A stretch of DNA of 64,000 bases from Patescibacteria group bacterium. GTDB taxonomy: Bacteria > Patescibacteriota > Dojkabacteria > GCA-002793355. The notes beneath the pieces were generated by a model. That model did not search any database. It worked only from the letters and a program-made list of their open reading frames with translations, and was not told the origin of the DNA. This document shows positions 4,514-55,800 of this stretch, in pieces. The stretch is taken from contig BOKM01000001.1 in assembly GCA_016860985.1 (NCBI GenBank), positions 591,462 through 655,461 on the forward strand, in the 5' to 3' direction. The translations under genes and the position numbers were made by a program. Numbering within the stretch: the first letter of the stretch is position 1; each line of letters opens with the position of its first letter.

Positions 4514-5125
4514 GTGCGAAATACTTTCTCTCGAAACATTCTTAAATTGGCGGGTATTATTACTGTCATTTTTGCCGTTCTTATAGTTGCTATTCCTCCT
4601 CTTATATATTTTTATTATCGAAGATATATCTACGTTTCGGTTGAGTCGGTAGCTAATAATCCCCGTACTGTGATGGTTTTAGGAGCTGCGGTCTACCCAG
4701 ACGATACCCCAAGTAGTGCGCTTCAAGAGCGTTTAAATATGGCGGTCGAGTTATATAAAAATGGGAAAGTGGACAGAATATTAGTGTCTGGTGCATCAGA
4801 TACTGGCGCATACGATGAGGCAAGGGCAATGAAAAGTGCATTGGTTCAGGCAGGAATTCCTGCCGAATCGATAATTGAGGATAATCAAGGAACAAGAACT
4901 TTTGAATCCTGTAAACGTGCAAAAAGTGAGTTCAAAATTGACTCGTTGCTCGTAGTAAGCCAGGGATTTCATTTACCTCGTGCTTTGTTTTTATGTCGTG
5001 GGGTAAACATTGAGTCATATGGAATTTACGCCCTAGGCAATTTTTCGACATACCACAGTAACTGGTACAACTACCGAGAAATCGGTGCAATGTATCTTGC
5101 TTTTTACGACATTCTTTCTCTGTAA
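4514..5125 (+). CDS. SanA/YdcF (DUF218) family membrane-anchored protein
   Basis: N-terminal TM followed by 'VMVLGAAVYPDDTPSSALQERLNMAVELYKNGKVDRILVSGA', typical of DUF218/SanA; GTG start. Confidence 0.6.
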   Translation: MRNTFSRNILKLAGIITVIFAVLIVAIPPLIYFYYRRYIYVSVESVANNPRTVMVLGAAVYPDDTPSSALQERLNMAVELYKNGKVDRILVSGASDTGAYDEARAMKSALVQAGIPAESIIEDNQGTRTFESCKRAKSEFKIDSLLVVSQGFHLPRALFLCRGVNIESYGIYALGNFSTYHSNWYNYREIGAMYLAFYDILSL

Positions 5126-5164
5126 TAAGTGCTATAATCGAACATTAATTTGTAAGGTCCAATC

Positions 5165-19053: not shown

Positions 19054-20307
19054 ATGCCTTATTTGTTATGTTTTTTGGGAGTTTTGCTCGGGACCGTTCT
19101 TGCAACGTTTGGCTATTATTTCGTTCTCTTTGTGCTGATATGTACAAGTGTGTGGGTTTCTATTAAATATCGCCCTATATATGCAAAGCTTGTGTGGCTT
19201 GTACTTTTTGCTTTTGGGCTTATTGTGTCAGGAATGCGTGCGAGCGGTAGGGCAACTGTAGTTTGGTATTTGGGCGACACCTGCAGTGGAAGAGTTGTAA
19301 AAAATTACGACAGAAATCTGTCAGTTAGGGTTGACAATTGTTTGAAATCGAGCGGGAAAGGGGCGTATATCTACACTAAGTGTTTGGGGTGGTGTCCGAT
19401 GACATATCAGAAGGTAAATTTTCGGCTTACGTCGTTAAAAAGTTTTGGGAAATTTCAGGGAGAGGGGATTGTGGTGACTGTGCTGTCTGATGAGCAGAAA
19501 TCGTCACCACAAGATGTTTATTATAGGTTGTTGCGGAGATTTTCTTACGTTAAGTTGGTGTATTTCAGTAGATTGCGGGAAATGACTTCCAGCGATGTAG
19601 CATCGCTAGTTACCAGTATGTTGTTTGGCGAAACTAATATTTCAAATGATCTTAAGGATGTGATGAAGGGGGTTGGAATGATGCATGTTGTCGCGATTTC
19701 GGGGGTGAATATCTCCTATTTGCTTAAATTCTACAATCTTATTAGTAAAAGGTTCTCGTACACAACTCGAAAAGTGGGTGAGTGGGTGTTGCTCTTAGTG
19801 CTGTATCTTGTTGTTGGAGAGGTACTTTCACTAGTAAGAGCGCTTTTAACTCTTTTTTGGGCCGTTTTTATAAAGAGAGTCGGTGTTGTCGTGGGTGAGA
19901 ATGTGTACTGGCTAAGTATGTCAGCTTTGCTGGTTCTGGAACCGTGGAATTATATGGATGTAGGGTATTGGCTTGTTTTTTCAGCATGTTTTGGGGTGTT
20001 CATCGTTGTACCATTTATAACAAAAAAGTGGAGAATCTCTGGAGTAAGAAAATTATTAGTAGAAAATCTTGTTGTTTGGGGATGTGTGGTACCTGCGCAA
20101 ATTATTGTGTTTAGACAAATTTCTGTTGGAAGTCTGGTTCTGATGCCCGTAATTGGGCCACTTGTTGAGTATGTATCAATACTGGGATATCTCGGAGTAG
20201 TGCTGCTAAGGGTACCAATAGTATCGGAGGTCGTCTCCATAGTTCTCGGCTCACTTACCGCCGTAATACTATTTGCTATAAACATGTTCCACGCACTCGC
20301 GTCTTGA
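19054..20307 (+). CDS. comEC: ComEC/Rec2-family competence membrane protein
   Basis: Polytopic membrane protein with 'MHVVAISGVNISYL', the ComEC 'H..AISG.H' competence-domain motif. Confidence 0.65.
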   Translation: MPYLLCFLGVLLGTVLATFGYYFVLFVLICTSVWVSIKYRPIYAKLVWLVLFAFGLIVSGMRASGRATVVWYLGDTCSGRVVKNYDRNLSVRVDNCLKSSGKGAYIYTKCLGWCPMTYQKVNFRLTSLKSFGKFQGEGIVVTVLSDEQKSSPQDVYYRLLRRFSYVKLVYFSRLREMTSSDVASLVTSMLFGETNISNDLKDVMKGVGMMHVVAISGVNISYLLKFYNLISKRFSYTTRKVGEWVLLLVLYLVVGEVLSLVRALLTLFWAVFIKRVGVVVGENVYWLSMSALLVLEPWNYMDVGYWLVFSACFGVFIVVPFITKKWRISGVRKLLVENLVVWGCVVPAQIIVFRQISVGSLVLMPVIGPLVEYVSILGYLGVVLLRVPIVSEVVSIVLGSLTAVILFAINMFHALAS

Positions 20308-28683: not shown

Positions 28684-31600
28684 ATGAGAAACAGAAGCGG
28701 GCAGAGCCCCTCCGCTTTCCTTCGGGTAACGCTTTTTGCGTTGCTTTTGACGACTTTTTCATTCTTGGGGCAAGTTCGTGCAGCGACGACTGACACAATT
28801 TCTTTTCAAAGCAAGCTTACAAATACCGATGGTACAAACATTTCGAACGGTACGTACAACTTCCGTTTTCGAATGTACTCCGTGTCTTCCGGTGGCACTT
28901 CCCACTGGACTGAAGATAGATCGTTAGTCGTGAATGCTGGCGTTGTGTCTGTTGATTTGGGGGCGGTTCAAAGTTTTCCATCGGATCTATTTGATTATTC
29001 TGATCTCTATCTTCAGGTCTGTTTCGATGCAAATGGAACTGACTTGGATAGCTCTGATGCGAATTGTGGAAGCGGTTCACATCGCTATGAAGAGGTATTT
29101 TCGACAAGAAAAGCAATTACTGCTGTCCCTGTGGCATTTAGAGCAAAATACCTAACGGATGGTGCAGGTAATGCCTACGGGTTTAACGATTTCTTTATCC
29201 AAGGAGGCAATGCCTTTGGGGCGGTTGGGGTTATCGGAACTACTGATAATTATGGTCTTGAATTTAGAACTAACAATTCAGTAGTAGGCTCTTTTGATAC
29301 TTCTGGTACCTTTGAAATGGCAGGGCTAGCAAAAATAGGTGCGGTTGCCATCGATGATGCGCCGTCGAACACTTATGGTCCAGCGCTCTGGGGCGGCACT
29401 TTTAACAATGGATTAACAATTAAACGGGACCTTGTAGACCTTTCAATGCAGGTAGTAACAGGGAGTCTTACGGAATTAAATATTAACCCATCTGCAACTC
29501 CGATAGCAGATTCAGTTGGTTCACTAACGTTAGTGTATAGCAATGCTGCAAATTCTGAGAATCTATCAAGCCTGTATGGTGTTTATGGAGAGACGATACA
29601 TAGTAGTTCAGGTACGGCAGATTATTTATACGGTGGTCATTTTTCAGCTTCGAGGGATACTAGTACCGGAGGGGCAGTGGGTACAACTTATGGAATTAGC
29701 GCATATGCCGCTGATGGCGATAATATAATTGCTGGAAGTTTTGTAGCTAATAGACAATTGGGCGCAACAAATGTAGACACCAAAGGCGTTAGCTCATTCG
29801 TTTCCAATCAATATGCACAGTCTTCTGGTGTCGACAATACATATGGGTCCTATGTGAGTGTATCAAGACAAAATGCAACAGGTGGCACTGTAAATACGTA
29901 TGGTATTTATGCCGAACTTGGTGGCGATAATGCTGGGTCTGGGGTGCATACAACCTACGGTTTATATCTCGAAAATTTTGGAGGTGGCGATACAAACTAT
30001 GCGATTTATACAAATGGTACAACGCCTAGCAGATTCGGTGGAAGTATTACGACCGAAGGTATTCTTGGCATCAAAGAAACCGGTACGACACCTACGTACT
30101 ACACATACTTTCAAGGTGGGGACCAAGCAGGTGATATTACCTATACTTTGCCTACGGCTTCGAGTAACGGGGTACTTACCAACACGGGTGGCGTACTGAG
30201 CTGGGCAGCAGGTGGCGGTGGAATTAGCCAAGTTGGTTCAATGACTAGTTCTGTGGTTTTTGGTGATGTAACTGCAGACGATGACTGGCTTGGTTTGGGT
30301 GCTTCGGCGGGGAGGATTGAATTTGATGATTTAACCATCGATGAAATAAACATTCTTGGTGCGAGAGTTGGTATTGGAACTTCGACGCCTACTGACGCAC
30401 TGTCGTTAGTTGTGAATGAAACAGATAATGCGATTTGGGGTGGCGGTGTATCTGTATTTTATGATTATGCTCCAGCAACAGCAGGCACTGGGTATCCAAT
30501 TGGAATAATAAATTCAGTGAGTGTGGGCGTCGGGAATGCCAATGGAATGAGCGGTTTAATTGGTATACAAAACGAAGTCTCAAATGACGGAAGTGGAGAT
30601 ATAGATAATCTCATTGGTATGATCACTTCTGCTTACAATTCAGGGTCGAATCAGGTCACTTCGATTATGGGTGCATCAATCTCTGCTGGGGCTTCTGGGG
30701 GCGGTGCAACAAATCTAATTGGATTGAATGTTTCTGCTAATGACACTATTCCAGGCGTTACTAACCTGTATGGAATCTATGTCGGAGCATTCAACGATGG
30801 AATCGGAGATACACAAAATCGTTACACTCTCTATCTTGCAGAAGATGAAGATGGAAGCACGGCAGTGAATGATTTTGGCCTGTATTCAGCTGACCCAAAT
30901 GTAGTGAACTACTTTGCAGGAAATGTTGGTATTGGAACTGTTTCACCAACAAGTTTTGTACTGCAGGTGGCTGGAGACATTGGCCCTGACGCTGACGATA
31001 CATACGATTTAGGATCTTCTTCTTTGAGATTTAGGGATTTGTATTTAGGTGGAAACACATTGCATATTGGAAGCTCCTTAACAGACGAAGGTACCATATC
31101 TTATAACACCACGACCAACGTTTTAGGAATCTCTACAGACTCAACGACTAATGGTGATATTGCGTTCTTTACTAATCAACTCTTCTTGGATAAGTCGAGT
31201 GGCAATGTCGGAATTGGAACAACTGCACCACTTTCAACACTAAATATTGCAGATAACACTGGCCCTGTAACGCTTACCTCAACGTTATTGGGTGATCCAG
31301 GAACAACAGGGGCGCTAGGAAGGTATGCATTTAGAGCGGAAACAACGGAAGCCCCAAGTTGGACAACAGTTTACAACACACCAGAGGTAACGGTATCAGC
31401 CTTTGCGTATGATTATGAGAATGGAGTTATGTACGCGGCTGCAGGTGGCGGAAATGGTGTAATTTATCGTTGTGTAGTATCTTCTGGTTGTGATGTTTCA
31501 GGCGATTGGACGGAAGTGTACGATGCAGCTAGTTTGTGGGATCAACCTGCCATTGTGTTTGATGCTGCAACAAATACGGTCTTCTCTACATCTGATGGAG

Positions 31601-34600
31601 TGGTGTCGCGTTGTGATACGAGTACTGGTTGTGACGCACCTGGTGATTGGGCAAATGTATTCACGAGTGGTGATGATGATGTACTTTCACTCGGAGTTGA
31701 TACCGCTAATAGTGTTCTTTACGTTGGTTCAGCATGGACACAAGGAATAATTTACCGATGTGATATTGCAGCAACTAGTTGTGATGCTTCTGGCGACTTT
31801 ACTACAAGTTTTGACACTCCAGACGATGGTCTTACCTCAATGGTCTATGATGCTACAAATGGCACGATGTACGCGGGCAGTGAATGGGGAGGTGAAGTGT
31901 ATCGTTGTGACACAGCAACGGATTGTGACGCCGGAACTGACTGGACTGTATCAGGAGATCTTCCTGGTTCCGGAAATCTAATTCACGCACTTGCAATCGA
32001 TACCGCAAACGATATTTTATATGCATCGTCAGATGATGTCATTTATCGGTGTCCTTTGAGCAGTGGTTGTGATGCTCTTACCGACTGGTCAATCTCGTAT
32101 GATACGAATCTCTCTGGTGTCTACAGTTTAGGGTACGATACTGTACACGAAAGAATGTTTGCAGGAACAGGAAACACCGGAATTGTATATCAATGTGCGA
32201 CTTCTACCGGTTGTGACAGCTCGAGCGATTGGTCAGTATCTTATGATTCGACACAAACCTCGATATTAAGTATTGGTGTAGTGAATGGAGTTGTGTATGC
32301 GGGTAGTGGAAATGGCGGTTTTATCTATCGATTTGATGATAATACTTCTCCGACCTACGCAAACTACGCAGCGATAGAAGCTTATGCAGTTGATACAGTT
32401 ACAGGCTCAGAAGATGGCCGACTATCGTTTAAAACAATGCTTGGTGGAACTGAATATGAGTCACTTCGAGTTTCCGGTAATGCTTCTACGTTTTATAGCT
32501 CACTTTCTTTGGGTACTTCTTCGGCTGGATATGATGCGACATTTAATGCTTCTGGTGTAAATCGTTCTCTTTTCTGGGAATCCTCGACGGGGAGATTGAT
32601 AGGTAGAGATGGTACAAATCCGATGGTTATGTTTACTACTCAACCAAGCACCGCGGATGGTGTCTTTACCTCCTTTAACGCTACCGGCACTTCGAAGGTG
32701 GTCCAGTTCGGTAATGCTGCAATGAATATTGGTGGTGGAGGTAAGTTCCGACTGTTTAATCAGCCAACGTGGGCAGTTGGAGAAGATCCAGGAGCAATGA
32801 GTGCGGTAGAAACACTCGAAATGAACTCGGCAACAGGTTCAATTGGCATTAATCCAAGTGGAAACGCTTCTGCACCTACAACTGAGAATATCCGGATAAC
32901 AACTAATGTAAGTGTGGCAGCAGATATTACCGGACTGTATATTACCGGAAGTAATCCAGGAGGAAGTTGGACCGCAGGGTATTTTGGGGGAAATGTAGGA
33001 ATAGGTGCGACTGGTGTTCCAAATGCCACGCTAAATGTTAGGGGAAGTGCAAATCAAGTGCAGTTTGCAGTAAGAAATAATGGTACGCAAAGTGCAAATA
33101 TGGTTGAGTTTCAGAATTCTTCTGGTACTGCTTTAACTTCCATAAACTCAAGTGGTCATCTTGATTTGTCGGGCAATGCAATTCCAAATGCATGGAATAC
33201 GGTATTAAAATTTAATAATGACACATTAGGGGCTACTGAACTCGCTGGTGGTTTTACGAATGGTTTTATCCGTTCCTCTACAGGCAGATTGCTTGTTAAC
33301 TATATTACTGATAATGCAGCAAACTCACTTTTTGGCGGTGGAGTTAATGGTGATGCCTATAGGCGTTTCACGATGGGTGGTGACGGAAAATGGAGTGTTG
33401 GAGATGGAACAGGGCTTCAAGATACGAACTTATACCGATCTGCTGCAAATCAGTGGACTACAGATGATTCTTTTAGAATAAAGGGAACGCTTGGAGTGAT
33501 GGAAGGCACTGGGGCTACATACTACACTATTTTCCAGGGTGGAGACCAAGCTGGAGATATTACCTATACTTTGCCAACCGCCTCGTCAAATGGCTTCTTG
33601 CAAAATACAGGCGGGTTACTCAGTTGGGCAGCCGGAAGTAGTAGCGTAACTGTCGGTTCAATGACAGGGGGAACCTTGTTTGCCGATGCCACCGCAGATG
33701 ATGATTGGCTAGGTTTAGGGGCAAGTGCAGGTCGCATAGCCTTTGATGATCAAACAACTGACTACGTGAACATTTTAGATGCGAATGTCGGTATCGGAAT
33801 TGCAGCACCAACAGAACGACTTCATATAGCAAACAATGGGGACACGTACTTAAATATCAACGCAACTAATGGATCTGGACAGATAAGCGGCCTTAAACTG
33901 CAACGGGGAACGTGGTTAACCGATACGTATACTGATTACAGTCTCTACGTTTCTAACGGTGATTTTATGATTGACACGCTTGATGACAACGTGACAACGA
34001 ACGTTTTTCATATAGACGGAGCAACCGGCTATACCGGTATTGGAATGTCAACGACAGCAAATCGATTGGCTGTAAAAGGTGGGCAATCAGTAGCCACTAT
34101 TGGTGTGAGTAATTTGATTACGGCAGACGGCACCTTTGCTACTTCGAGTGGGTGGACAGCAGGTTCAGGGTGGAGTATTGGTTCCGGAGTCGTGACTCAC
34201 ACAACAGGTAACACTGCGACATTGTCCGGAACGACTGGTGCAACCGACGATGATCTCGTTTATCAGGTTAATTTTACGGTTGCGGTGACAACTGCGGGTG
34301 ATGGGTTTACGGTATCGCTTGGCGGGAACGATGCGGGAACAACAATAACTACGGCTGGTGCAAAGGTATTGTATATTCGCCCAACTGATTTAACTGGTAC
34401 CCTCGTCTTTACCCCAGGACCTGCTGGAACTTTTGTTGGAACGATTGATGACGTAACAGTATATGCAATAAGTCAATCTAATGCTGATGTTTTGGTCCAA
34501 AACAGCAACGGAACTACTAATCCTCTCGAGTTACGCGCAGGAGGTAGTGGAGCGCTAAGCACATTTATCGGTACTAACGCAGGTCGTTACAATACGACAA

Positions 34601-37600
34601 CAGGTGGTGGTGGAAATGGTTTGTACAACACCTTTGTTGGTTATAACTCCGGAAGGTTTAACGCAACAGGAAATAGTAATACAACCCTTGGGCACTACGC
34701 TTTGGCACGAAATACAACTGGTTACTCTAATACTGCAATCGGTACGTGGGCAATGGAATATAACATCTCTGGCTATCGAAATAGCGCTTTTGGAGATGGC
34801 GCTTTAGGTCTGAACACCACGGGCTACGAAAATAGTGGTTTTGGCATGTACTCGCTTGCAGAAAATACAACAGGTAATCGTAATGTTGCACTTGGTTACG
34901 CCGCACTTGAAGAAAACACAACGGGACATAGCAACATTTCAGTGGGTAGTCGTTCAGGTCGTTATTTGGCAGATGGGTCTACTCCCAATACGAATTCAAT
35001 CGAGTCAATTTTCATTGGAACTGATACAGAAGCACTCGCGGCCAGTGGAACAAACGAGATTGTGATTGGCTATGCAGCAGAAGGGTTAGGAAGTAACTCT
35101 GTGGTTCTTGGAAATGATTCCATTATAAAAACACTTTTGCGAGGTAATGTGGGTATCGGTGCAAGTTCAAGCAACCAATTGTATGTTTACGATGGGCAAT
35201 GGGCCGATACCGTCAACCCACAAGTATTGATTTATGGAGTAGATAATGAAACCCAAGTAAAGGCACTTTCGATTGTAGATGAAAACGATAATGAGTACTT
35301 TTATGTACGTTCGACGACCGATGATCGTGGAGAAACATACTTCTTAGGAGATGTTGGAATAGGTGTCGAATCTCCTGCCTATGCACTCTCGGTTCAGGCG
35401 GCAGCCGGACAAGATGCAATAAACTGGAGAAACCCGACATACGAATTAGGTCGGTTAGGATATTCGACGGATAATGACAGTGGTTGGTTAGGTCTTTATC
35501 GTAATGGTTCAAGTGAGGTTGAAATTAAAGCAAATGGTGATTCTTATTTTAATGGTGGGGATGTTGGTATTGGTTTAGATTATGCAAATACTCGATTGCA
35601 CGTGAAAGGATCTAGTTCCCTCGCAAGTGTAGGGGTGACCAATTTAGTCACCGCAGACGGTACTTTTGCGACATCCTCAGGATGGACAGAGGGAACAGGT
35701 TGGACAATTGGTTCTGGTGTTGCAACGCACGCAACAGGGAATACAGGAATACTTTCAGGTACAACTACAGCAACAAATACATCAACCGTTTATCAAGTAA
35801 ACTTTACAACAACAGTTACAACAGCAGGTGATGGATTAACAGTATCCCTCGGTGGGCAAGACGCAGGTGAAACAATTACAACTGCTGGTGCAAAAACACT
35901 ATATATCGTTCCGTCAGCAGGCACAGGAACACTTGAGTTTAAACTCGGAGCACTTGGTACGTTTGTCGGTACTATTGATGATGTAACAGTGTATGCGTTA
36001 ACGGGTTCCACAGCAGATGCAACATTCGAAAGTAGCAATGGTACGAGCAGCCCGATTGAGTTACGAGCAGGAAGAAGCTCAAGCAACAATACCTTTATTG
36101 GAACGAATGCAGGTAGCTTTAGTACAATAAGCGGTGGGGGAACTTACAACACCTTTATTGGTTATGATTCTGGGCGATACACTACAACAGCTAGTAGAAA
36201 TACTGCACTTGGCACTTGGTCCTTTGCCCAAAACACAACTGGTTATCGAAGCACCGCAATTGGATATTCTGCGTTGAGTGAAAATACAACTGGTTACAGA
36301 AACACTGCACTTGGTTCGAACGCCTTAGAACTAAATACAACAGGGTATGATAACGCAGCCGTTGGAACGTACGCGCTTAATGTGAACACAACGGGTTACG
36401 AAAATGCTTCTTTGGGCATCTACTCACTTGAGGCAAATACAACAGGAAACCGAAATGTTGCAATTGGTTTTGCTGCATTGGAGAATAACACCACAGGGTA
36501 TCGCAATACCGCAATCGGTAGCCGTTCGGGGCGCTACCTTGCCGATGGGGTGACGTCAAATACAAACTCAATATCATCCATTTTCATTGGTTCGGATACA
36601 GAGGCACTTGCAGCAAGTGGCACAAATGAAATTGTGATTGGTTACGGAGCAGAAGGGTTAGGAAGTAACTCGGTAGTACTCGGTAACGACTCCATAACAA
36701 AAACATTACTGCAAGGTAACGTAGGAATTGGTGCGAGTTCAAACAATCAATTATATGTGTACGACTCACAATGGGCAGATATTACGAATCCACAAGTATT
36801 GATTTATGGAGTAGACAACGAAACACAGGTTAAGGCACTTTCGATTGTCGATGAAAATGATAATGAATATTTCTACGTAAGGTCTTCACCCGATGATAAA
36901 GGCGAAACTTATTTTAATGGTGACGTTGGAATTGGAGTAGAATCTCCTGCCTACAAACTAGCGGTTGGTGGAACGCTCGGTATTCTTGAAGGTGGGAGTA
37001 CACCAAGCTTTTATACAATCTTCCAAGGTGGTGATCAGTCGGCAAATCTTACCTACACGTTGCCAACGACTTCTACAAACGGTGTATTGACCAATACTGC
37101 AGGCGTTTTGAGTTGGGTTGCCGGTGGTGGTGGCGGTATTGGGCAGGTTGGTTCGATGACGGGCACTCCGGCTTTTGGCGATGCAACCGCAGACGATGAT
37201 TGGTTAGGTTTAGGTGCGAGTGCGGGAAGAATAGCGTTTGATGACCAAGCAATAGACTACGTCAATATTCTTGATGCGAATGTTGGAATTGGATACGCTA
37301 CGCCAACTGCGAGATTAGATATTCAAGGTACTGTGACCGAAGCTTCGCTCGGAGCTGAAATGATTACTGCAACTGCAGACCGTGATTTCTCTTCTTGGAC
37401 TGGAAATTGGTCGGGCACTGATTGGGCACCAAGTGGTGACGGAAGAGCAAGGCACTTAATTTCAGTTGGCTTTTCGCATCCATTTTCTTTAAGTAATGCT
37501 GCGTTGTCTGCGGCACCAGCTTCCGGGAATGTTTATAAAATTACATTTACGGTAGAAACTTCTACCGTGGGCTCTCTCCTTGTTAGTATCGGGGGTGCAA

Positions 37601-40600
37601 ACTCGGGTGTTTTAGTTGGAAAACAATTGAATACTGAAACTCATACAGTAGTCATCACTGCAACAGGCACAGGTGCACTAACATTTACACCTAACACAGG
37701 TGGATGGGAAGGTTACCTGGATGATATCTCTGTGGTTCAGGTTACACCTACCAATGCTGTAGAAATATTAAGAAATGCAGATGGAACAATTGGGTCAGAA
37801 TTACGTGCCGGTGGTTCAGCTCTATATAATACTTTTGTAGGTAACTCAAGTGGCCAAGCCAATACAACAGGGTACAACAATGCAGCTTTAGGACGTCAGG
37901 CTTTAGGGCACAATATTGCCGGATATCGGAATAGTGCAGTCGGGTACAACGCCCTCTATGAGAATACGATTGGTCATGATAACGTTGCATTTGGTACATT
38001 CGCTTCTCGTTGGAATAACATTGGAAATTACAATACTTCGGTCGGTGTATATGCACTTGGAAGTTCAACAAGCGGCTCTTATAACACAAGTATTGGTTAT
38101 CAATCACTTTACAATGTAACAAGTGGCAATAATAACACCGCGTTTGGTAGTTCTGTGGGGTATTCTTTGAGTACTGGAGCGAATAATGTATTGTTTGGCT
38201 ATCAGGCAGGAGACAATCTTACCTCTGGCTCCAACAATATCGTTATCGGTTACAATGTTGATGCGCCATCTGCTACGGCTTCGAACCAACTCAATATTGG
38301 CAACTTTATTTTTGGAACAGGAATCGATGGTACGGGTACAACAGTATCGAACGGCAGGATTGGTATTGGGACAACTGCGCCACAAACTACTTTTGACGTA
38401 GCTGGTTCCGGAGCATTTAGCGCGCTTGGTGTGAAGTATATTACAGGCTCTATTGATCCAACTGCTTCAACTACCGTTACCGGTACAGGCACGCTCTTCT
38501 TAAGTGAAGTTGATCCAGGAGACAGAATCGCACTAGATGGCACAGCTACTATTACAGGTTCCATTGACCCTACTGCGTCAACTGCAGTAACTGGAGTTGG
38601 AACGCTCTTCCTTACTGAGCTTAAGGTTGGTGATCAAATTACCGTTAATTCCGAGACTCGAACTGTTATCGCAATTGCCTCGAACACTGCTTTGACCGTT
38701 GGTGTTGCTTTTACTGACACAGCAAACGACACATCAATAGTGCGAACGTCAACCGAAATAAGAACGGTTGTTTCTATTGCTTCCAACACTTCCTTAACAG
38801 TCGACAGGGCATACCTCGATAATAGTGCAGATAGCCAAATTACAGTGTATCGAGATACCTTTGATGTGACAGGTGCAGCCCTATTTAAAGGTGGTGCTTT
38901 GTTTACGGGACTTGGAACTCCAGGTGCGCCAACAGTCACTCCTCAAGGCACTACTGGCGCTGCAACATGGACATATAAAATTTCAGCGGTCAATGCAACA
39001 GGCAATGAAACAGTGCTGTCTGCAGATGGTTCAACCACCTCAGGTAATGCCACTTTGTCAGGGACAAATTTCAATAGAATTACATGGTCCGAAACTCCAG
39101 GTGCCGCTGCGTATAGAATTTATCGCGTCGCAACGGGTACTTCTCCAAACACCTCGGGGTACATTGGAACAGTTGATGCACACAGTACATTGCAGTTTGA
39201 TGACACGGGTATTGGTATCATGGGTGGTTACTCAGGGAGTGTATTCGATGAAACAAGTAACGTAGGAATTGGCACACTTAAAACACCACCACGAGACACA
39301 CTCACGGTAGACGGAAGGATTAATCAGACATGGCACTATATGTTTGAGGATTTCTTTGGAGGCAGAGCAAACCAGACGGCAAACGCAGTAATCAACGCAG
39401 GCAATGCAATGAGTTTTGCAAGAATCGGAACATCGGGTTGTACAGCTTCTTATCCGAGTGTCGCAAACGGAGTATATAGAATGACATCTGGTGCTACGGC
39501 GGCCTTAGGTTGTTTGCTTTCTCAGGCTGGTACTGCAGGGTTACCAAATATTAAGCAAGTTGATGTCTCACTCGCGCCAGTGCTTGAAGTGGTCCTTAAC
39601 CCAGGAGCGACTTCGGCAAAAACAATGATTGTTGGTTTTTCTAACCAGACAACCGCAACGGTTGCCGAACCTACTGCAGGCTTGTATTTCTATGCCAGCA
39701 CGGCAGGTACTCCTTCTGATCAATGGATAGCGGTTGCCCGTAACGCATCTGTTTCAACCACACAGGCCACAGGAGTCACAACAAACACAAATACGTATCA
39801 AGTTCTGAGGATTGAAGCATCAGCTACTCATGCACGCTACTATATTAACGATGTACTTGTTGCAGATTTGAGAACAAATATTCCTGCGTCAGGTGCAACC
39901 CTCGAATTCGTAGTCGGTCACGCGACAACGGCAGCAGCAGCTAAAACGGTGGACATTGATTCAATTGAGTTCTGGCAAGATGATCCAGTGGTTTCAGGTA
40001 TGCCTGGACAGTTGCCCGCAGGCTTTGATGGTTCAAACTTACTTCAGAATCACATGCTTTACAGTGATACAACCTACGCGAAAGGTGCAAGCGAAGAAAC
40101 GATTCCAGAAGGCTACGTCGTCTCGTTTACTGATAGCACAGAATTCGATGATAACGGAAAGAATAGATTAGTGTACAACATTGAAAAATCAAAAGCTGGA
40201 GATTCGACCGTTCTTGGTATTGGTTCAGGACTTATTGATCCAAATGCACCTTTTGAAATTGGATTAAATCCATATGCTGTTGCACTCTACGGTCCAACCT
40301 ATGCGTGGGTAGAAGAGGGTGGAGAAACAAATATTACCCTTGGACAAGAGCTAAGACTTTCGAGTAAATCAGAAGGTGTTCTGTCGGTTGAAGGTGGACA
40401 GATAATTGCACGTTCACTAGAAGTCGTAGACTGGAATGTCATTGATGGAGTCGAAGGGCAATCAAAGCGAAAACTCATTAAGGTCTTTGCAATGAATGGT
40501 GGCTCACAAAATGCTGCTCTGGTTGCAGGTGGGGTAAGTAACTACTTTACGGCAGTTGATGATTCCTCGATCCAGACACCATACAGACTTATTGCCAATT

Positions 40601-41091
40601 CATTAGTTGCAACAACAGCAGAAGTAAATGTACTGAAAGCCAGAACACTCAATGTAAACGATAACTTCCTTGTAGACGACGAAGGGAATGTTTCTACAAG
40701 CGGAGAACTTTTTGCCGGAGCGATAGAAACGCCAGTAATAAAAGGTGTCGCCGGTGGGTTGAATATAAATATTGGAGAGCAAGAAACCTTTACCGTTTCG
40801 GTTGGTGATACAAAGGCAATTGAGGCAAGCGTGAAAGGAGTTAAAGTCAATAACTTATTAGTAAGCGAGCAGCAGGCAGGCAAAGTAACTCTCCCAGCTG
40901 GTCAAACAACCACAACCGTACAAAGCGAATTGGTTGCTCCTGAATCCGTAGTTGTTGTGACTCCAAATATTCCAGTGGTAACAGCTGTCAAGACAAATAA
41001 TGGCTATTTTGTTATTTCGATAGCAACTGCGAGTTCGCAGGATATCGAACTCGCATGGTATGTCGTAAATGTGGATAGAGGAGAAGATTAA
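28684..41091 (+). CDS. giant (4135-aa) secreted mosaic surface protein
   Basis: Single uninterrupted ORF with signal peptide 'MRNRSGQSPSAFLRVTLFALLLTTFSFLGQVRAATTD'. Internal module repeats, YadA-head-like/tail-fibre-like repeats, FN3-like and ConA/LamG-like C-terminal regions; Thr/Gly/Ser-rich. Confidence 0.8.
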   Translation: MRNRSGQSPSAFLRVTLFALLLTTFSFLGQVRAATTDTISFQSKLTNTDGTNISNGTYNFRFRMYSVSSGGTSHWTEDRSLVVNAGVVSVDLGAVQSFPSDLFDYSDLYLQVCFDANGTDLDSSDANCGSGSHRYEEVFSTRKAITAVPVAFRAKYLTDGAGNAYGFNDFFIQGGNAFGAVGVIGTTDNYGLEFRTNNSVVGSFDTSGTFEMAGLAKIGAVAIDDAPSNTYGPALWGGTFNNGLTIKRDLVDLSMQVVTGSLTELNINPSATPIADSVGSLTLVYSNAANSENLSSLYGVYGETIHSSSGTADYLYGGHFSASRDTSTGGAVGTTYGISAYAADGDNIIAGSFVANRQLGATNVDTKGVSSFVSNQYAQSSGVDNTYGSYVSVSRQNATGGTVNTYGIYAELGGDNAGSGVHTTYGLYLENFGGGDTNYAIYTNGTTPSRFGGSITTEGILGIKETGTTPTYYTYFQGGDQAGDITYTLPTASSNGVLTNTGGVLSWAAGGGGISQVGSMTSSVVFGDVTADDDWLGLGASAGRIEFDDLTIDEINILGARVGIGTSTPTDALSLVVNETDNAIWGGGVSVFYDYAPATAGTGYPIGIINSVSVGVGNANGMSGLIGIQNEVSNDGSGDIDNLIGMITSAYNSGSNQVTSIMGASISAGASGGGATNLIGLNVSANDTIPGVTNLYGIYVGAFNDGIGDTQNRYTLYLAEDEDGSTAVNDFGLYSADPNVVNYFAGNVGIGTVSPTSFVLQVAGDIGPDADDTYDLGSSSLRFRDLYLGGNTLHIGSSLTDEGTISYNTTTNVLGISTDSTTNGDIAFFTNQLFLDKSSGNVGIGTTAPLSTLNIADNTGPVTLTSTLLGDPGTTGALGRYAFRAETTEAPSWTTVYNTPEVTVSAFAYDYENGVMYAAAGGGNGVIYRCVVSSGCDVSGDWTEVYDAASLWDQPAIVFDAATNTVFSTSDGVVSRCDTSTGCDAPGDWANVFTSGDDDVLSLGVDTANSVLYVGSAWTQGIIYRCDIAATSCDASGDFTTSFDTPDDGLTSMVYDATNGTMYAGSEWGGEVYRCDTATDCDAGTDWTVSGDLPGSGNLIHALAIDTANDILYASSDDVIYRCPLSSGCDALTDWSISYDTNLSGVYSLGYDTVHERMFAGTGNTGIVYQCATSTGCDSSSDWSVSYDSTQTSILSIGVVNGVVYAGSGNGGFIYRFDDNTSPTYANYAAIEAYAVDTVTGSEDGRLSFKTMLGGTEYESLRVSGNASTFYSSLSLGTSSAGYDATFNASGVNRSLFWESSTGRLIGRDGTNPMVMFTTQPSTADGVFTSFNATGTSKVVQFGNAAMNIGGGGKFRLFNQPTWAVGEDPGAMSAVETLEMNSATGSIGINPSGNASAPTTENIRITTNVSVAADITGLYITGSNPGGSWTAGYFGGNVGIGATGVPNATLNVRGSANQVQFAVRNNGTQSANMVEFQNSSGTALTSINSSGHLDLSGNAIPNAWNTVLKFNNDTLGATELAGGFTNGFIRSSTGRLLVNYITDNAANSLFGGGVNGDAYRRFTMGGDGKWSVGDGTGLQDTNLYRSAANQWTTDDSFRIKGTLGVMEGTGATYYTIFQGGDQAGDITYTLPTASSNGFLQNTGGLLSWAAGSSSVTVGSMTGGTLFADATADDDWLGLGASAGRIAFDDQTTDYVNILDANVGIGIAAPTERLHIANNGDTYLNINATNGSGQISGLKLQRGTWLTDTYTDYSLYVSNGDFMIDTLDDNVTTNVFHIDGATGYTGIGMSTTANRLAVKGGQSVATIGVSNLITADGTFATSSGWTAGSGWSIGSGVVTHTTGNTATLSGTTGATDDDLVYQVNFTVAVTTAGDGFTVSLGGNDAGTTITTAGAKVLYIRPTDLTGTLVFTPGPAGTFVGTIDDVTVYAISQSNADVLVQNSNGTTNPLELRAGGSGALSTFIGTNAGRYNTTTGGGGNGLYNTFVGYNSGRFNATGNSNTTLGHYALARNTTGYSNTAIGTWAMEYNISGYRNSAFGDGALGLNTTGYENSGFGMYSLAENTTGNRNVALGYAALEENTTGHSNISVGSRSGRYLADGSTPNTNSIESIFIGTDTEALAASGTNEIVIGYAAEGLGSNSVVLGNDSIIKTLLRGNVGIGASSSNQLYVYDGQWADTVNPQVLIYGVDNETQVKALSIVDENDNEYFYVRSTTDDRGETYFLGDVGIGVESPAYALSVQAAAGQDAINWRNPTYELGRLGYSTDNDSGWLGLYRNGSSEVEIKANGDSYFNGGDVGIGLDYANTRLHVKGSSSLASVGVTNLVTADGTFATSSGWTEGTGWTIGSGVATHATGNTGILSGTTTATNTSTVYQVNFTTTVTTAGDGLTVSLGGQDAGETITTAGAKTLYIVPSAGTGTLEFKLGALGTFVGTIDDVTVYALTGSTADATFESSNGTSSPIELRAGRSSSNNTFIGTNAGSFSTISGGGTYNTFIGYDSGRYTTTASRNTALGTWSFAQNTTGYRSTAIGYSALSENTTGYRNTALGSNALELNTTGYDNAAVGTYALNVNTTGYENASLGIYSLEANTTGNRNVAIGFAALENNTTGYRNTAIGSRSGRYLADGVTSNTNSISSIFIGSDTEALAASGTNEIVIGYGAEGLGSNSVVLGNDSITKTLLQGNVGIGASSNNQLYVYDSQWADITNPQVLIYGVDNETQVKALSIVDENDNEYFYVRSSPDDKGETYFNGDVGIGVESPAYKLAVGGTLGILEGGSTPSFYTIFQGGDQSANLTYTLPTTSTNGVLTNTAGVLSWVAGGGGGIGQVGSMTGTPAFGDATADDDWLGLGASAGRIAFDDQAIDYVNILDANVGIGYATPTARLDIQGTVTEASLGAEMITATADRDFSSWTGNWSGTDWAPSGDGRARHLISVGFSHPFSLSNAALSAAPASGNVYKITFTVETSTVGSLLVSIGGANSGVLVGKQLNTETHTVVITATGTGALTFTPNTGGWEGYLDDISVVQVTPTNAVEILRNADGTIGSELRAGGSALYNTFVGNSSGQANTTGYNNAALGRQALGHNIAGYRNSAVGYNALYENTIGHDNVAFGTFASRWNNIGNYNTSVGVYALGSSTSGSYNTSIGYQSLYNVTSGNNNTAFGSSVGYSLSTGANNVLFGYQAGDNLTSGSNNIVIGYNVDAPSATASNQLNIGNFIFGTGIDGTGTTVSNGRIGIGTTAPQTTFDVAGSGAFSALGVKYITGSIDPTASTTVTGTGTLFLSEVDPGDRIALDGTATITGSIDPTASTAVTGVGTLFLTELKVGDQITVNSETRTVIAIASNTALTVGVAFTDTANDTSIVRTSTEIRTVVSIASNTSLTVDRAYLDNSADSQITVYRDTFDVTGAALFKGGALFTGLGTPGAPTVTPQGTTGAATWTYKISAVNATGNETVLSADGSTTSGNATLSGTNFNRITWSETPGAAAYRIYRVATGTSPNTSGYIGTVDAHSTLQFDDTGIGIMGGYSGSVFDETSNVGIGTLKTPPRDTLTVDGRINQTWHYMFEDFFGGRANQTANAVINAGNAMSFARIGTSGCTASYPSVANGVYRMTSGATAALGCLLSQAGTAGLPNIKQVDVSLAPVLEVVLNPGATSAKTMIVGFSNQTTATVAEPTAGLYFYASTAGTPSDQWIAVARNASVSTTQATGVTTNTNTYQVLRIEASATHARYYINDVLVADLRTNIPASGATLEFVVGHATTAAAAKTVDIDSIEFWQDDPVVSGMPGQLPAGFDGSNLLQNHMLYSDTTYAKGASEETIPEGYVVSFTDSTEFDDNGKNRLVYNIEKSKAGDSTVLGIGSGLIDPNAPFEIGLNPYAVALYGPTYAWVEEGGETNITLGQELRLSSKSEGVLSVEGGQIIARSLEVVDWNVIDGVEGQSKRKLIKVFAMNGGSQNAALVAGGVSNYFTAVDDSSIQTPYRLIANSLVATTAEVNVLKARTLNVNDNFLVDDEGNVSTSGELFAGAIETPVIKGVAGGLNINIGEQETFTVSVGDTKAIEASVKGVKVNNLLVSEQQAGKVTLPAGQTTTTVQSELVAPESVVVVTPNIPVVTAVKTNNGYFVISIATASSQDIELAWYVVNVDRGED
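34084..36960 (+). repeat. intragenic tandem duplication (two diverged copies of about 1.45 kb each) within the giant gene
   Basis: Encoded blocks 'TADGTFATSSGWTAGSGWSIGSGVVTHTTGNTATLSGTTGATDDDLVYQVNFTVAVTTAGDGFTVSLGG ... VESPAYAL' and 'TADGTFATSSGWTEGTGWTIGSGVATHATGNTGILSGTTTATNTSTVYQVNFTTTVTTAGDGLTVSLGG ... VESPAYKL' are collinear over about 480 aa, with about 80% DNA identity in long stretches. Confidence 0.8.
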
Positions 41092-44146: not shown

Positions 44147-45698
<1,552 letters not shown>

Positions 45699-45739
45699 TA
45701 GGAGATGAGCGGTTTTCTCGCCACACCAGGATTGTTAAG

Positions 45740-45811
45740 GGGCATGTAGCTCAGTGGTAGAGCACTGTACTGATAATGCAGTGGTCCTTGGTTCGACCCC
45801 AAGCATGCCCA
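45740..45811 (+). tRNA. tRNA-Ile (anticodon GAT) in the 16S-23S spacer
   Basis: 'GGGCATGTAGCTCAGTGGTAGAGCACTGTACTGATAATGCAGTGGTCCTTGGTTCGACCCCAAGCATGCCCA' forms a cloverleaf. Confidence 0.9.
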
Positions 45812-45824
45812 TTTCTAGGGACCC

Positions 45825-45897
45825 GGGCCTGTAGCTCAGTTGGTAGAGCACTCGCTTTGCATGCGAGTTGTCAGGGGTTCGAATCCCCTCAGGTCCA
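45825..45897 (+). tRNA. tRNA-Ala (anticodon TGC) in the 16S-23S spacer
   Basis: 'GGGCCTGTAGCTCAGTTGGTAGAGCACTCGCTTTGCATGCGAGTTGTCAGGGGTTCGAATCCCCTCAGGTCCA' with the G3:U70 alanine identity pair. Confidence 0.9.
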
Positions 45898-46239
45898 AGA
45901 ATCTTTAAAAGGTTCTGAGTCTGAGGAAATGGAAAAATTGCATTATCATAATTAGTCAATGTCGGCTTCCAATATAAACGGAGCCAAAAAGCATTGCATA
46001 CACCTCGGTTCTTTGATAAAATCTGCTTACGCTCGTAAAGAAAGCAGAAGAGAGTGAAGGAATTATGGAGTTTTTCGCAAGGAAAATTCCCAGTTCTTTT
46101 ACTGAAAGGAGGTTCGCCTCTGATAAAGGATGTGCGTTGGTTTTCTTCGGAATTCTGACCTCTCTCATTTGCGCAAGCAAATGAGGGAAAACACATTTGA
46201 ACATTGACAATTGAATTAGGTTTTGTGACCGTACAAAAA

Positions 46240-49370
<3,131 letters not shown>

Positions 49371-49588
49371 TTGTTTGGTCACATACCTATTCAGTTGCTT
49401 TTACATTAGACTCTGTCTAGTACGAAAGCAACTGAAAACACGAATTTCAGACTTGTCTGTGTATAACTTGTTATACAACCTACTTGTAGGTAAAGGAGTG
49501 TTATTCAATTGTCAGTGTTTGCATTTTTCTGTAAACACTTTTCAACTCTATCTAATAAAAATAGACAATGCTCTGTTTTTTATATGCG

Positions 49589-51914: not shown

Positions 51915-52851
51915 GATAAATCTTTATATTGCTGTCGCGTTATTCATCTTTTTTGCGGGGGTACAGCTGGTTTTCTTTCCTGATTATGCGCATGCTGCAT
52001 CATCAAGTATCGGAGTTTCCCCGTCACAGATTACGAACGATATTCTTACCCCTGGGGCAGAGTATGAAACAAAATTGACGATTTCACGTGCATCAGCAAC
52101 TATTGAAGTTGTTGCAAAGATTGAAATAAGTGGACAGGAAATCTCAAACTGGGTAACTTTTCCCGCTGGAGACAGTGTTGTAATCGCTAAGGGCGAACAA
52201 CGAAAAGAGATAACGGTCAAAATCAAGGTACCGCAAGACGCAGCCTACAGAAAATACGAAGGAAGTCTCCGTTTTACGGTAACACAGCAAACACAAGGGC
52301 AAGTTAACATTGTTCCAGGTGTTCGTGTTGATGTTAAACTCACGGTCACTGATAAAATAACGGAATCCATTAAGGTTTTGTACGTACAAGCCAAAGATTC
52401 TCCGTTTCTTGCACCATATCATGTGATGGTAAAAGTCAAGAATTTAGGAAACGCCGAAGCTTCACCTACAAAGCTAAACTTGGTAATCTTAGACATTAAT
52501 GAGAAGGAGCTGAGAACTTTATCCGCCCAGTTTAATGAAAAAGTAGCGGCGTTTAGTGAAAAAGATTATGATATTTACCTGCAAGATCCAACGCCACTTT
52601 CAATAGGAGAGTACTGGGCAAGAGTTACCGTATTTGGGGGAGAGAAAGAATTGTATTCAGATAAATTCTCCTTTAGAATTACGGAATCGACTCCATCAGT
52701 CAGTGTATCACCTTCAGTAGATAAAGGTTCAATTTTTGCAAGCAATATTTTGATGATTACCTTAGTTTTTGTGGGCATACTTACACTGGTTGGATCAATC
52801 GCGATAATCGTTGTATTTAGGCGCAAAAACAAAGATGAAGAAGGTACCTAA
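51895..52851 (+). CDS. bitopic membrane-anchored protein (N-terminal signal, C-terminal TM) in the surface-protein operon
   Basis: 'MNQMNGKINLYIAVALFIFFAGVQLVFFPDYAHA' signal and C-terminal 'ILMITLVFVGILTLVGSIAIIVVFRRKNKDEE'. Overlaps both neighbours, by 20 nt upstream and 17 nt downstream. Confidence 0.5.
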   Translation: MNQMNGKINLYIAVALFIFFAGVQLVFFPDYAHAASSSIGVSPSQITNDILTPGAEYETKLTISRASATIEVVAKIEISGQEISNWVTFPAGDSVVIAKGEQRKEITVKIKVPQDAAYRKYEGSLRFTVTQQTQGQVNIVPGVRVDVKLTVTDKITESIKVLYVQAKDSPFLAPYHVMVKVKNLGNAEASPTKLNLVILDINEKELRTLSAQFNEKVAAFSEKDYDIYLQDPTPLSIGEYWARVTVFGGEKELYSDKFSFRITESTPSVSVSPSVDKGSIFASNILMITLVFVGILTLVGSIAIIVVFRRKNKDEEGT

Positions 52852-55800
52852 ATGGCTTGCTGTTAGTTATTCCGTTGCCTCGATTGTGGTTTTTCTTGTT
52901 ATTTCTACATTTATTCATTTTTATCCCTCACCTCCTAAATCAAATGCATGGACAGAAACCTGCACGTGGACTGGAGCAACCGGTGGTGCATGGGAAACAA
53001 GTACCAACTGGGATTGCAATAGTGTTAATAGAGTACCAACTGCAACTGATCGCGTAGTTATAGATTCTAATGTAACAGTAAATATCAACGCCACCACAAC
53101 TATAGATGATTTGGTAATTGGAAACTCAGGAGGTACAACTTCACCGATTTTAAACTTTAATTATGATGCAATTACAAACGGAGCACTTATTGTTGATGAT
53201 TCAAATGCAGTTATTTATTCAAATGCACAAGTAACGCATACGTTGGGCGCAACAGCCGAGACAGCAAAGGTCAATATAACGGTGACGAATGGTGACATGA
53301 CGGTTACTGGGAGTATAAATGTAAACGAAAAAGGGTTTCGTCCTGGATATGGAACAGGAAAGGGGAATAATGGAAATGGTGCAGGTGGTGGCGCATATGG
53401 AGGAGGTGGTGGAAGTGGTGCAAGTGCAACTGGGGGAATTCCGTATGGCTCAGCAGCGCAACCTGTTAATTATGGAAGTGGTGGTGGAACAGATGGGACA
53501 GGGCTAAACAAAGGGGCGGGAGGTGCCGCAAAAATAACGATTGGAGGAACACTAACCGTTAATGGTTCTATTACTGCAACGGGGGGAATATCAATTACTG
53601 GAACTTCAGATGTAGGGAGTGGCGCTGGCGGCAGTATTTGGATTACTGCAACAACTATAACAGGTGCGGGCTCAATAACTGCAAACGGAGGCAATGGTGG
53701 AACAGGTGGTCAGTTAGCGGGTGCGGGCGGTGGTGGTCGTGTTGCCCTTTACTACACAACCGACAGTATGAGTGGAACAGTTTCCGCAAAATCAGGAGGA
53801 ACCACAAGTGGTACTTCAGTAATTGGAGCTGCTGGGACTATATATCGAGAAGTAAATGGAGGAATCAAAACAATTTTTATAGACAATGTTGGGCAGAATA
53901 ACAACGATACCTATTCTAAAATTGAAACAGGACTGACGCTCGATACGCTGACGGTCGCGAGTTACGGGTATTTATGGCTTGACGTAACACTCACCACTAC
54001 GACACTTACGTTAGAAAATAACACAAGGCTAACTGTTGATGCCGCTGCAAACTGTACATACACCACCTTTAATCTTGGTACGCCAACAACGATTATGGAT
54101 AGGGGTGGCACATTTGCATTACTTAGCGATGGTGGTTCACTTACTGTTGCTGCCTCAAACACACTGATTGCAGATTATCCTCGTACTTATACGAGTGTCA
54201 CGATAAACGGAACACTTACCACAAGTCAGAACTCAAGTGCCGAAACTTATAAGCTTTCTCACACTACATCAGGTGACTACACAATTTCTTCAACTGGTGT
54301 AATCAACGTTAGCGAGAAAGGTTACACGCCAGGTTACGGCCCAGGCAAGGGGGTTAACGGAAATGGAGCAGGCGGTGCAGGGCATGGCGGAGGGGGCGGA
54401 AGAGGAACTAGTGCAGTTGGTGGGACAACATACGGCTCTACAACGCAACCAAATAATATAGGGAGTGGTGGCGGTACTGATGGTCTAGGGCTAAACAAAG
54501 GTGGAGGAGGGGCGGTTAAATTGGACGTTGGGGGTACGTTAACAATAAACGGTAGTATTACAGCAAATGGTGGAGCATCACTAACAGGAACAAGCGATGT
54601 TGGTGGCGGAAGTGGCGGAAGCATATGGCTTATTGCATCTACATTATCTGGTTCTGGAGCTCTTTCTGCAAATGGAGGAAATGGGGGGCCTTCAGGGCAA
54701 AACTCAGGTGCAGGTGGTGGTGGGAGAATTGCTATCTATTACACAACTGACACCTCGACGCTGACAGTGTCTGCAAAGAGTGGAACAACTGGTGGAGGAA
54801 CATGGGTTATTGGTGCTGCAGGTACAATCTACAAAGAGTCTACAGGTGGCACAAAGAGTGTGACTATAGATAATGGAAATTTAGAGAACAACGATAATTA
54901 CGCAACAATTCAATCTGGTTTAAACCTTACCACCTTGACCGTAACGAATAAGGGATCGTTATGGGCAGATAATTCAACTACAGCAACGACAGTTAATCTA
55001 ACTAACTCAGGAAAACTTGCAATAGCGTCAACTGGTAGTATCTCTTATACAAACCTAAACTGGTCAACATCTGGAATTTTAATAGATAGAGGAGGGACGT
55101 TCTCATTACTAAGTGGAGGAGCTGTACTTACTGTTCCGACAAGTACAGTGCTTTTTGCTGATACTGCAAGAACATACACGTCTGTTACTGTTGATGGAAC
55201 AGTGACGCATACAGCAAATGGTACAGCTGAAACGTATAAAACTAATCATACAACATCAGGTGACTACACAATATCGGCAACTGGATCGATTGACGTAACG
55301 GGAAAGGGGTTTGCAGGTGGGTACGGTACGGGCAAGGGAACCAACGGTAACGGTGCTGGTGGCGCTGGATATGGTGGAGAAGGTGGAAACGATGCATATG
55401 CAAATATCGCTGGAGGAACAACATATGGTTCGCTCACAAATCCACTCGATTCCGGGAGTGGTGGCGGAATTAACGAAGGTGCACAAAATTATGGAGGAGG
55501 AGTTGTGAAATTATCGATTGGGGGAACGTTGACAGTCGATGGCCCGATTTACTCTAACGGACAAGCAAATCAAGGCGGTGGGACTGACGATGTTGGTGGC
55601 GGGTCCGGCGGGTCCATCAACATTACGGCGTCAACACTTGCTGGAAATTCAACAGTCGCCGCTAATGGTACGAATGCGTATAGGTATGGAGGAGCAGGCG
55701 GTGGGGGAAGAATTGCAGTGTACTATACAAACAACACTTCTTCGATTTCCTATCAGGCATACGGAGGAACTCAGGGTGGTTCGGGGGGGAACATCGGCGC

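Follow-up and report, generated by a model that had tools for sequence, protein, structure and literature searches.

The DNA analysed here, a 64-kb window of contig BOKM01000001.1 from a Dojkabacteria member of the Patescibacteria (Candidate Phyla Radiation, CPR), carries a giant open reading frame (ORF) of 12.4 kb (Table 1), the product of which is, as judged from its sequence, a Sec-secreted, mosaic, fibre-like surface protein. Within this protein lies a domain of seven tandem units that is predicted to fold as a seven-bladed beta-propeller, and in which six pairs of Cys residues most likely staple the hairpins between neighbouring strands. An earlier interpretation made from the letters alone (hereafter the sequence-only reading) had tentatively taken this region for a novel propeller-like, disulfide-stabilised module of an extracellular protein. 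The predicted Sec-type signal peptide of the giant ORF agrees with the extracellular location.

The first Cys of the successive pairs falls at aa 930, 977, 1026, 1075, 1123 and 1171, i.e. at a spacing of 47-49 aa, with the units themselves being about 48 aa long. Five units carry the signature C-x5-C-D-x3-D-W, the third has C-x6-C-D-x3-D-F and the seventh (ending in 'FIYRF') is devoid of Cys. The variant form of the third unit, 'CD[IV]xATSCD', recurs in the equivalent blade of four homologues (P0001, P0002, P0005 and P0008), and 12 of the 16 Cys residues of the giant protein are found inside a single 250-aa stretch. The sequence-only reading had reported seven repeats, each with a Cys pair and an Asp-Trp: the repeats are real, with all the motif strings it quoted being present in the translation, and the Cys pair and Asp-Trp hold for five units, the third and seventh departing from them as described. 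It had also located the repeats correctly, at 31430-32380, with bounds that need adjustment: the domain starts about 70 nt earlier (31357), because the N-terminal 'SWTTVY...VMYAAAG' segment is part of it, and ends at about 32337.

A hidden Markov model (HMM) of the unit, 48 positions long and built from homologues only with the units of the window protein itself excluded, matches the giant protein solely at aa 893-1210, where it recovers seven units with independent E-values of 4e-9 to 6e-19; since these units played no part in making the model, chance is excluded as the source of the repeats. A search for DNA-level tandem repeats with Tandem Repeats Finder returned none, and hence the repeats are old and diverged at the protein level. 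Compared with the orthologue in locus L002, the domain shows 93.6% amino acid identity and a ratio of nonsynonymous to synonymous substitution rates (dN/dS) of 0.016, which is a rough ratio as dS (~1.9) is saturated; this indicates that the domain is a real coding sequence under purifying selection. The notion that the repeats are a chance or low-complexity artefact of a non-coding or mis-framed stretch can be dismissed for practical purposes in the face of these unit E-values, hundreds of homologues, a confident fold and the strength of the purifying selection.

An AlphaFold2 (AF2) model of aa 885-1262, computed with an 11-sequence alignment, has a mean predicted local distance difference test score (pLDDT) of 85.2 and a predicted template-modelling score (pTM) of 0.83, and displays 28 beta-strands (7x4) followed by a low-confidence linker, with the pLDDT collapsing after 'FIYRF'. 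Foldseek searches with this model against the PDB return seven-bladed propellers with template-modelling (TM) scores of 0.72-0.84 at 10-15% identity, the best being the Thermomonospora WD40 protein 5yzv (TM 0.83), RACK1/Asc1, WDR5 and Escherichia coli YncE; at such identity the likeness to WD40 is one of fold only. On this model aa 892-1218 would thus constitute a seven-bladed beta-propeller, in line with the approximately seven blades that the sequence-only reading had proposed.

In each sequence blade the order is I-x-S-L-x-F-D-x-x-N (strand 1), V-L-Y-A-G (strand 2) and G-I-I-Y-R-C (strand 3), followed by the hairpin x-x-S-T-G-C-D-x-x-G-D-W and T-x-x-Y-D (strand 4). In the AF2 model the Cys loop is placed between strands 3 and 4 of each sequence blade, as a segment of about 10 residues with two 3-10 turns between the 'GVIYRC' and 'DWTEVY' strands. 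From the order of the strands we infer the blade registration, under which the N-terminal 'SWTTVY' would be strand 4 of blade 7 and close the ring in a 1+3 'velcro' arrangement with the last three strands. The presence of six Cys pairs in seven blades is then explained, because blade 7, being closed by the N-terminal Trp strand, has no 3-4 hairpin. The AF2 model of the homologue P0001, which is fused to a pilin, likewise has 28 strands, preceded by an N-terminal helix; it starts at 'ALFAG' (strand 2), ends at 'YFTKILY' (strand 1) and presents seven Cys hairpins, pointing to a circular permutation. The pilin-fused relatives would accordingly be permuted forms that start at strand 2 and contain seven Cys pairs.

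Table 1. Features of the giant ORF, its propeller domain and the neighbouring genes (positions are those of the 64-kb window).
Feature	Residues (aa)	Position (nt)	Strand	Basis
Giant ORF, 4135 aa; mosaic fibre-like surface protein		28684-41091	+	ORF list and translation
Probable Sec signal peptide, MRNRSG...LGQVRA/ATT	1-33	28684-28782	+	read from the sequence by eye
Seven-unit domain, predicted propeller	892-1218	31357-32337	+	AF2 model, Foldseek against PDB, unit HMM
N-terminal strand 'SWTTVY'	892-897	31357-31374	+	first model strand (E8-13); aligns to unit-HMM positions 18 onward (Trp strand)
Cys hairpin 1, CVVSSGCDVSGDW	930-942	31471-31509	+	loop with two 3-10 turns between model strands E41-47 and E58-64
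Cys hairpin 2, CDTSTGCDAPGDW	977-989	31612-31650	+	sequence and model
Cys hairpin 3, CDIAATSCDASGDF (C-x6-C/D-F variant)	1026-1039	31759-31800	+	sequence and model
Cys hairpin 4, CDTATDCDAGTDW	1075-1087	31906-31944	+	sequence and model
Cys hairpin 5, CPLSSGCDALTDW	1123-1135	32050-32088	+	sequence and model
Cys hairpin 6, CATSTGCDSSSDW	1171-1183	32194-32232	+	sequence and model
Last strand 'FIYRF', predicted strand 3 of blade 7, no Cys hairpin after it	1213-1217	32320-32334	+	last propeller strand of the model (E330-334)
Next gene, 815 aa: NHL-repeat propeller, Big_13 and C-terminal hydrophobic segment		41069-43516	+	23-nt overlap with the end of the giant ORF
ComEC-type 'Competence' protein		19054-20307	+	
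1597-aa ORF, no Pfam/PHROG match		52811-57604	+	
GH18 (chitinase-like) protein		57601-59511	-	
16S, tRNA-Ile, tRNA-Ala, 23S genes, in this order		44147-49375		
5S gene		59579-59693		

The domain has no match in the collections of known families. Against Pfam-A nothing significant was obtained, with the BNR, Sortilin-Vps10 and PSII_BNR models (PF02012, PF15902 and PF14870) showing no match even at E <= 10; NCBIfam gave no match either, and neither the single sequence nor the profile found anything significant among PDB sequences, where the matches to a coronavirus 3CL protease and to gliomedin (E 0.05-0.26) amount to noise. The models for WD40 (PF00400), YWTD/LDL-receptor class B, PQQ, SBBP (PF06739), Kelch (PF01344 and relatives) and NHL (PF01436) do not match the domain at E <= 10. 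These results bear out the sequence-only reading, which had recognised no named repeat family and had singled out YWTD, NHL, PQQ and Kelch for comparison. An NHL identity was further rejected by an hhalign comparison of the family alignment with the NHL propeller of the downstream gene, which gave a probability of 1.3%. Among the homologues, P0003 gives no better than E 0.22 for WD40 and E 0.91 for SBBP, and the name 'SBBP' borne by P0132 stems from a separate C-terminal domain. A general resemblance to Kelch, NHL and SBBP blades lies in the blade length of about 48 aa, in an h-h-Y-x-G-G/S strand followed by a strand that ends before the Trp strand, and in the 'YAG[ST]' strand; the weak matches to Kelch are those involving the designed Kelch 7ong (E 0.034) and, for the Cys-less relative P0011, Kelch_FKB95 below the curated cut-off. 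The domain nevertheless differs from all three in that none of their Pfam models matches it.

A more specific kinship emerges with the Asp-box propellers (motif S-x-D-x-G-x-T-W) of the Sortilin-Vps10/Ycf48/sialidase group, since the family profile reaches Sortilin-Vps10/BNR proteins, namely P0090 (8e-38), P0115 (8e-26), P0124 (7e-24) and P0150 (1e-20). Positions 13-18 of the unit HMM (D-x-x-G-D-W) align to the Asp-boxes 'DDGESW', 'DSGKSW' and 'DAGQTW' of P0090, P0115 and P0150, and P0067 combines a near-canonical Asp-box, 'NIYRSTNGGSTW', in one blade with Y-R-C-x5-C-D-x3-D-W in its neighbouring blades. In propellers the Asp-box always lies between strands 3 and 4; only the D/N at position 5 and the aromatic residue at position 10 are indispensable; and its role is structural, with only the opposite ('top') face being functional in known structures (Quistgaard and Thirup, PMC2716378). 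This core is kept in the Cys family, where unit position 13 is D in 77% (N in 7%) and position 18 is W/F/Y in 99%. The two types further have in common four-stranded blades, a strand 3/4 hairpin in which an Asp is followed five residues later by an aromatic residue (usually Trp), h-[YF]-[RK] before the hairpin and an 'LYAG' strand in the blade. They differ in that the hairpin of the present family is 5-6 residues longer and bears two Cys, and in the great regularity of its propellers, irregular ones being characteristic of the Asp-box type (PMC2716378).

As the D and the aromatic residue retain their spacing as well as their place in the loop, the Cys hairpin is probably an expanded, disulfide-stapled Asp-box-like hairpin, in which the disulfide would have taken over a part of the stabilising role. 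Three observations count against such a derivation: the Asp-box positions S, G and T (3, 7 and 9 of the motif) are replaced, their equivalents being G (56%), S/A (with G in only 10%) and D/E/N; the Pfam BNR and Sortilin models do not match the domain; and the top Foldseek matches are of the WD40/YncE type rather than the sialidase type. With these set against the shared core, the family would represent a Cys-stapled offshoot of Asp-box-type propellers.

Turning to the Cys residues themselves, 593 (88%) of 677 scored loops contain exactly two, 47 contain one and 34 none, and 463 of the 593 have the spacing C-x5-C. The first Cys of a pair closes strand 3 and the second follows 6 or 7 residues later; the two are most likely joined in a local disulfide, by which the hairpin of strands 3 and 4 would be stapled. 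A comparable arrangement is known in PfCyRPA, the cysteine-rich protective antigen of Plasmodium falciparum, which is a secreted, non-enzymatic six-bladed propeller with one disulfide per blade except in the blade put together from the N- and C-termini (PMC5349852). The likeness extends to a closure blade without a staple (the staple being predicted in our case), to what is left of an Asp-box between strands 3 and 4, and to a secreted protein used in cell invasion or attachment (as proposed here). Unlike the domain in the window, CyRPA has six irregular blades, is eukaryotic and lacks the C-x5-C-D...D-W motif; moreover, no CyRPA chain is found at E <= 1 when PDB sequences are searched with the family profile, and thus no sequence relationship is detected. 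As for the means of oxidation, an enrichment of MdbA-like thiol-disulfide oxidoreductases together with VKOR has been described for CPR genomes (10.1101/335083), and in a Colwellbacteria locus (L001) a gene for a membrane-anchored DsbA-like protein with a CPFC motif (3780-4514) lies two genes from the gene for a Cys-bladed propeller (587-2317). A thioredoxin-reductase-like gene (4767-5687) is also present in L001, three genes from the propeller gene.

On the other side of the ledger, the predicted disulfides are deduced from the co-occurrence of the Cys residues; a sub-family with the signature 'GVWRCxxPDxSPxW' (P0070, P0096 and P0117) retains only the first Cys, which is therefore not always paired; and no DsbA/MdbA-like gene turned up in the window, itself just a part of the genome, either in a blastp search with the homologue from L001 or in a scan for CxxC. 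That sub-family would also suit a role of the conserved C-x5-C-D...D, with its S and O ligands, in binding a metal, e.g. Zn or Fe together with the adjacent Asp, or in carrying some other modification, as would the fact that most CPR bacteria come from anoxic groundwater. Yet each site offers two Cys only and the protein is secreted, while a C-x5-C at a hairpin's base is what a local staple typically looks like, with PfCyRPA serving as a precedent; together with the MdbA-like/VKOR enrichment and the DsbA-like gene two genes from the L001 homologue, this makes metal binding very improbable, and we retain a disulfide staple as the preferred interpretation. In the 'GVWRCxxPDxSPxW' blades, seen additionally in P0145, Pro-Asp takes the place of the second Cys and DUF5719 often co-occurs. 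In P0132 (aa 60-400) and P0148 (aa 70-380) the 'C-x-x-[ST]-G-C-D-x-x-G-D-W' hairpin is mounted on a different blade backbone ('...SLALDSANNPRISYYD...DLKF..C'). This different mounting points to the hairpin as the most conserved and transferable element.

The family initially looked very rare, as a word-indexed homologue search yielded 11 relatives; this impression was overturned by an exhaustive profile search, which returned 1035 cluster representatives at E <= 1e-3 and 99 at E <= 1e-30. The former number does not represent the size of the family because matches weaker than about E 1e-40 are Cys-less relatives; among the best 150 of the 1035 matches, 79 have at least three Cys hairpins. Stapled-type proteins are typically large, with a median of 1367 aa and more than 3000 aa in 12 cases. 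The lengths of their tandem unit runs peak sharply at seven (66 runs), with 21 units in P0012 and P0013 and 14 in P0014, i.e. three and two propellers, respectively. Those members for which an organism is given belong to 'Patescibacteria group bacterium', Dojkabacteria, Microgenomates and Colwellbacteria, which are all CPR, and are without exception annotated as 'hypothetical protein', several being encoded on contigs of 0.8-1.0 Mb, a length usual for CPR genomes; a single-sequence scan of genome contigs retrieved one locus only, in Colwellbacteria. Literature searches found no prior description of the motif in CPR.

The architectures of these proteins are varied. Five homologues (P0001, P0006, P0007, P0035 and P0038) are type IV pilin fusions with a G/FTLIELL signal, in which the propeller makes up the whole of the non-pilin part as a C-terminal head; P0038 belongs to an operon in which a prepilin peptidase, two pilins and an unannotated gene of 453 aa immediately precede it. 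In P0024 the Cys-bladed propeller is inserted in an NHL/SGL array, the flanking blades of which, and not the Cys blades, are matched by Pfam NHL; one source names this protein 'sugar lactone lactonase YvrE'. Going by these architectures, the domain is a portable cassette: mosaic fibre proteins of related genomes have it at varied positions, a single protein can contain as many as three copies, and in pilins it forms the head. A type IV pilin signal (PF07963, N_methyl) was not found in the window protein, the signal of which is of the Sec type. A functional parallel to the pilin fusions is provided by PilX2 of TM7x, a cultivated CPR bacterium of the Saccharibacteria, a minor pilin that bears a seven-bladed propeller at its C-terminus and on which efficient binding to the host depends (PMC11623550). 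PilX2 and the Pseudomonas PilY1 resemble our pilin-fused members in having a seven-bladed propeller C-terminal on a type IV pilus protein. In contrast to these members, the propeller of PilX2 is made of RCC1 repeats and that of PilY1 belongs to a family of its own, and a Cys hairpin is reported in neither; the window protein differs from both as a Sec-secreted giant fibre without a pilin.

The giant protein itself has no Pfam-A match over its whole length, and an exact look-up of its sequence returned no record. Its signal, as read directly from the sequence, combines a basic N-terminus with a hydrophobic core and a V-R-A motif, and repeats of the PHROG 4636 'tail spike' family are detected at aa ~2010-2166 (E 4.7e-41). 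Large internal duplications are visible by eye. The close relative P0032 is 90-94% identical to it over aa 1-1519 and 3222-4132, whereas the intervening ~1700 aa (aa 1520-3221) are replaced; P0036 has the N-terminus in common with the giant protein, with a common stretch at aa 562-1279, and P0051 shares the N-terminus more distantly and holds the propeller cassette at aa 192-665. The signal peptide, the tail-spike-like repeats and the mosaic exchange together place the propeller in an extracellular context. Conserved ends with an exchangeable middle and tail-spike-like repeats are likewise seen in mosaic fibres such as the Bdellovibrio mosaic adhesive trimer (MAT) proteins and phage tail fibres and spikes, a likeness that concerns the carrier and not the propeller. 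The NCBIfam model for the MAT N-terminus gives a non-significant E of 0.06 against the giant protein, and the fold matches in BFVD include viral tail-fibre proteins with propellers. A by-eye comparison with P0016 and P0060 gives the impression that the propeller splits a fibre module in two (~31200-31356 and 32340-32470), being preceded by '...GNVGIGTT.P...L.V...' and followed by '...G.EDG.L.F.T..GG...E.LR..G'. A propeller nested in this manner would form a lateral knob on the shaft.

As for function, we assign a probability of about 0.62 to the proposal that the domain is a rigid, disulfide-hardened binding module on an adhesive surface fibre used for attachment. Under this proposal, an episymbiotic CPR bacterium would display on its fibre a rigid module hardened by oxidation, by which it would attach to a host cell or to a surface polymer. 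With Asp-box propellers taken as the model, the stapled hairpins would act as the scaffold and binding would fall to the opposite ('top') face. A stronger version, which we consider doubtful, would make the domain a CPR-specific, portable host-recognition head common to the tip pilins of pili and to giant fibres, acting as a main determinant of grip, with the six or seven identical hairpins or the opposite face arrayed as a multivalent lectin-like binding crown.

Certain features of the domain count against an adhesive role, which we infer rather than observe. At aa 892-1218 of 4135 the propeller occupies a mid-chain position, and its sequence is strongly conserved among relatives that differ by the exchange of a separate segment; this is not what would be expected of a determinant of host specificity and fits a structural knob at least equally; in addition, the relatives in the superfamily are often enzymes. 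The propeller might accordingly be purely structural, i.e. a rigid knob, spacer or oligomerisation node without a ligand of its own, with recognition residing in the exchangeable middle or C-terminal parts. The low dN/dS in the face of the replacement of aa 1520-3221 in P0032 speaks for this, as does the by-eye nesting between the two fibre-module halves. Weighing on the other side are the pilin fusions, where the head, being the entire non-pilin part, is expected to be the functional tip, and the movement of the domain as a cassette elsewhere, as in P0051; a purely structural role is thereby left as an unlikely, if appreciable, alternative.

A catalytic role, e.g. as a glycosidase, sialidase-like enzyme, lactonase or lyase that remodels envelope polymers of the host or of the cell itself, appears improbable to us. 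Asp-box propellers, its remote relatives, are mostly glycosidases (PMC2716378), the domain occurs in the NHL/SGL array of the P0024 'sugar lactone lactonase', and a GH18 gene is present in the window. However, no enzyme family of Pfam or NCBIfam matches the domain, and the same residues are conserved in every blade, a pattern of a scaffold rather than of blade-specific catalytic residues. Like binding modules, it can be strung together in tandem, with up to three copies, and is carried by pilins, and PfCyRPA illustrates that a propeller of the sialidase fold with a disulfide per blade can be non-catalytic. Attachment through a binding module thus remains the interpretation we favour.

Almost nothing is known of the way in which the CPR/Patescibacteria, which make up a large part of bacterial diversity, recognise their hosts and hold on to them, and the biggest of their surface proteins are annotated as 'hypothetical'; the domain described here is a well-defined, confidently foldable and recurrent module of such proteins. 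It has neither a Pfam nor an NCBIfam model and deserves both a family model and a structure. By linking two display systems, pili and giant fibres, it lends itself as a concrete target to the curation of families, to structural work and to assays of binding. From the viewpoint of protein science it is neither a new fold nor a new principle: it presents a very regular propeller with a predicted C-x5-C staple on an Asp-box-like hairpin, in which the closure-blade rule of CyRPA is repeated.

Regarding the remaining genes of the window, the gene overlapping the end of the giant ORF codes for a second, unrelated propeller protein that is probably part of the same operon. On the 5' side of the giant gene, a trio of ATP-grasp/RimK-like genes is suggested by the syntenic locus L002. 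A ComEC-type gene and a long ORF without Pfam or PHROG matches are found further away (Table 1). In the rRNA genes, the 23S match is 3142 nt long where the model has 2925 nt, a surplus of about 200 nt, and the 5S gene is situated some 10 kb downstream of the 23S gene, with protein genes in between.

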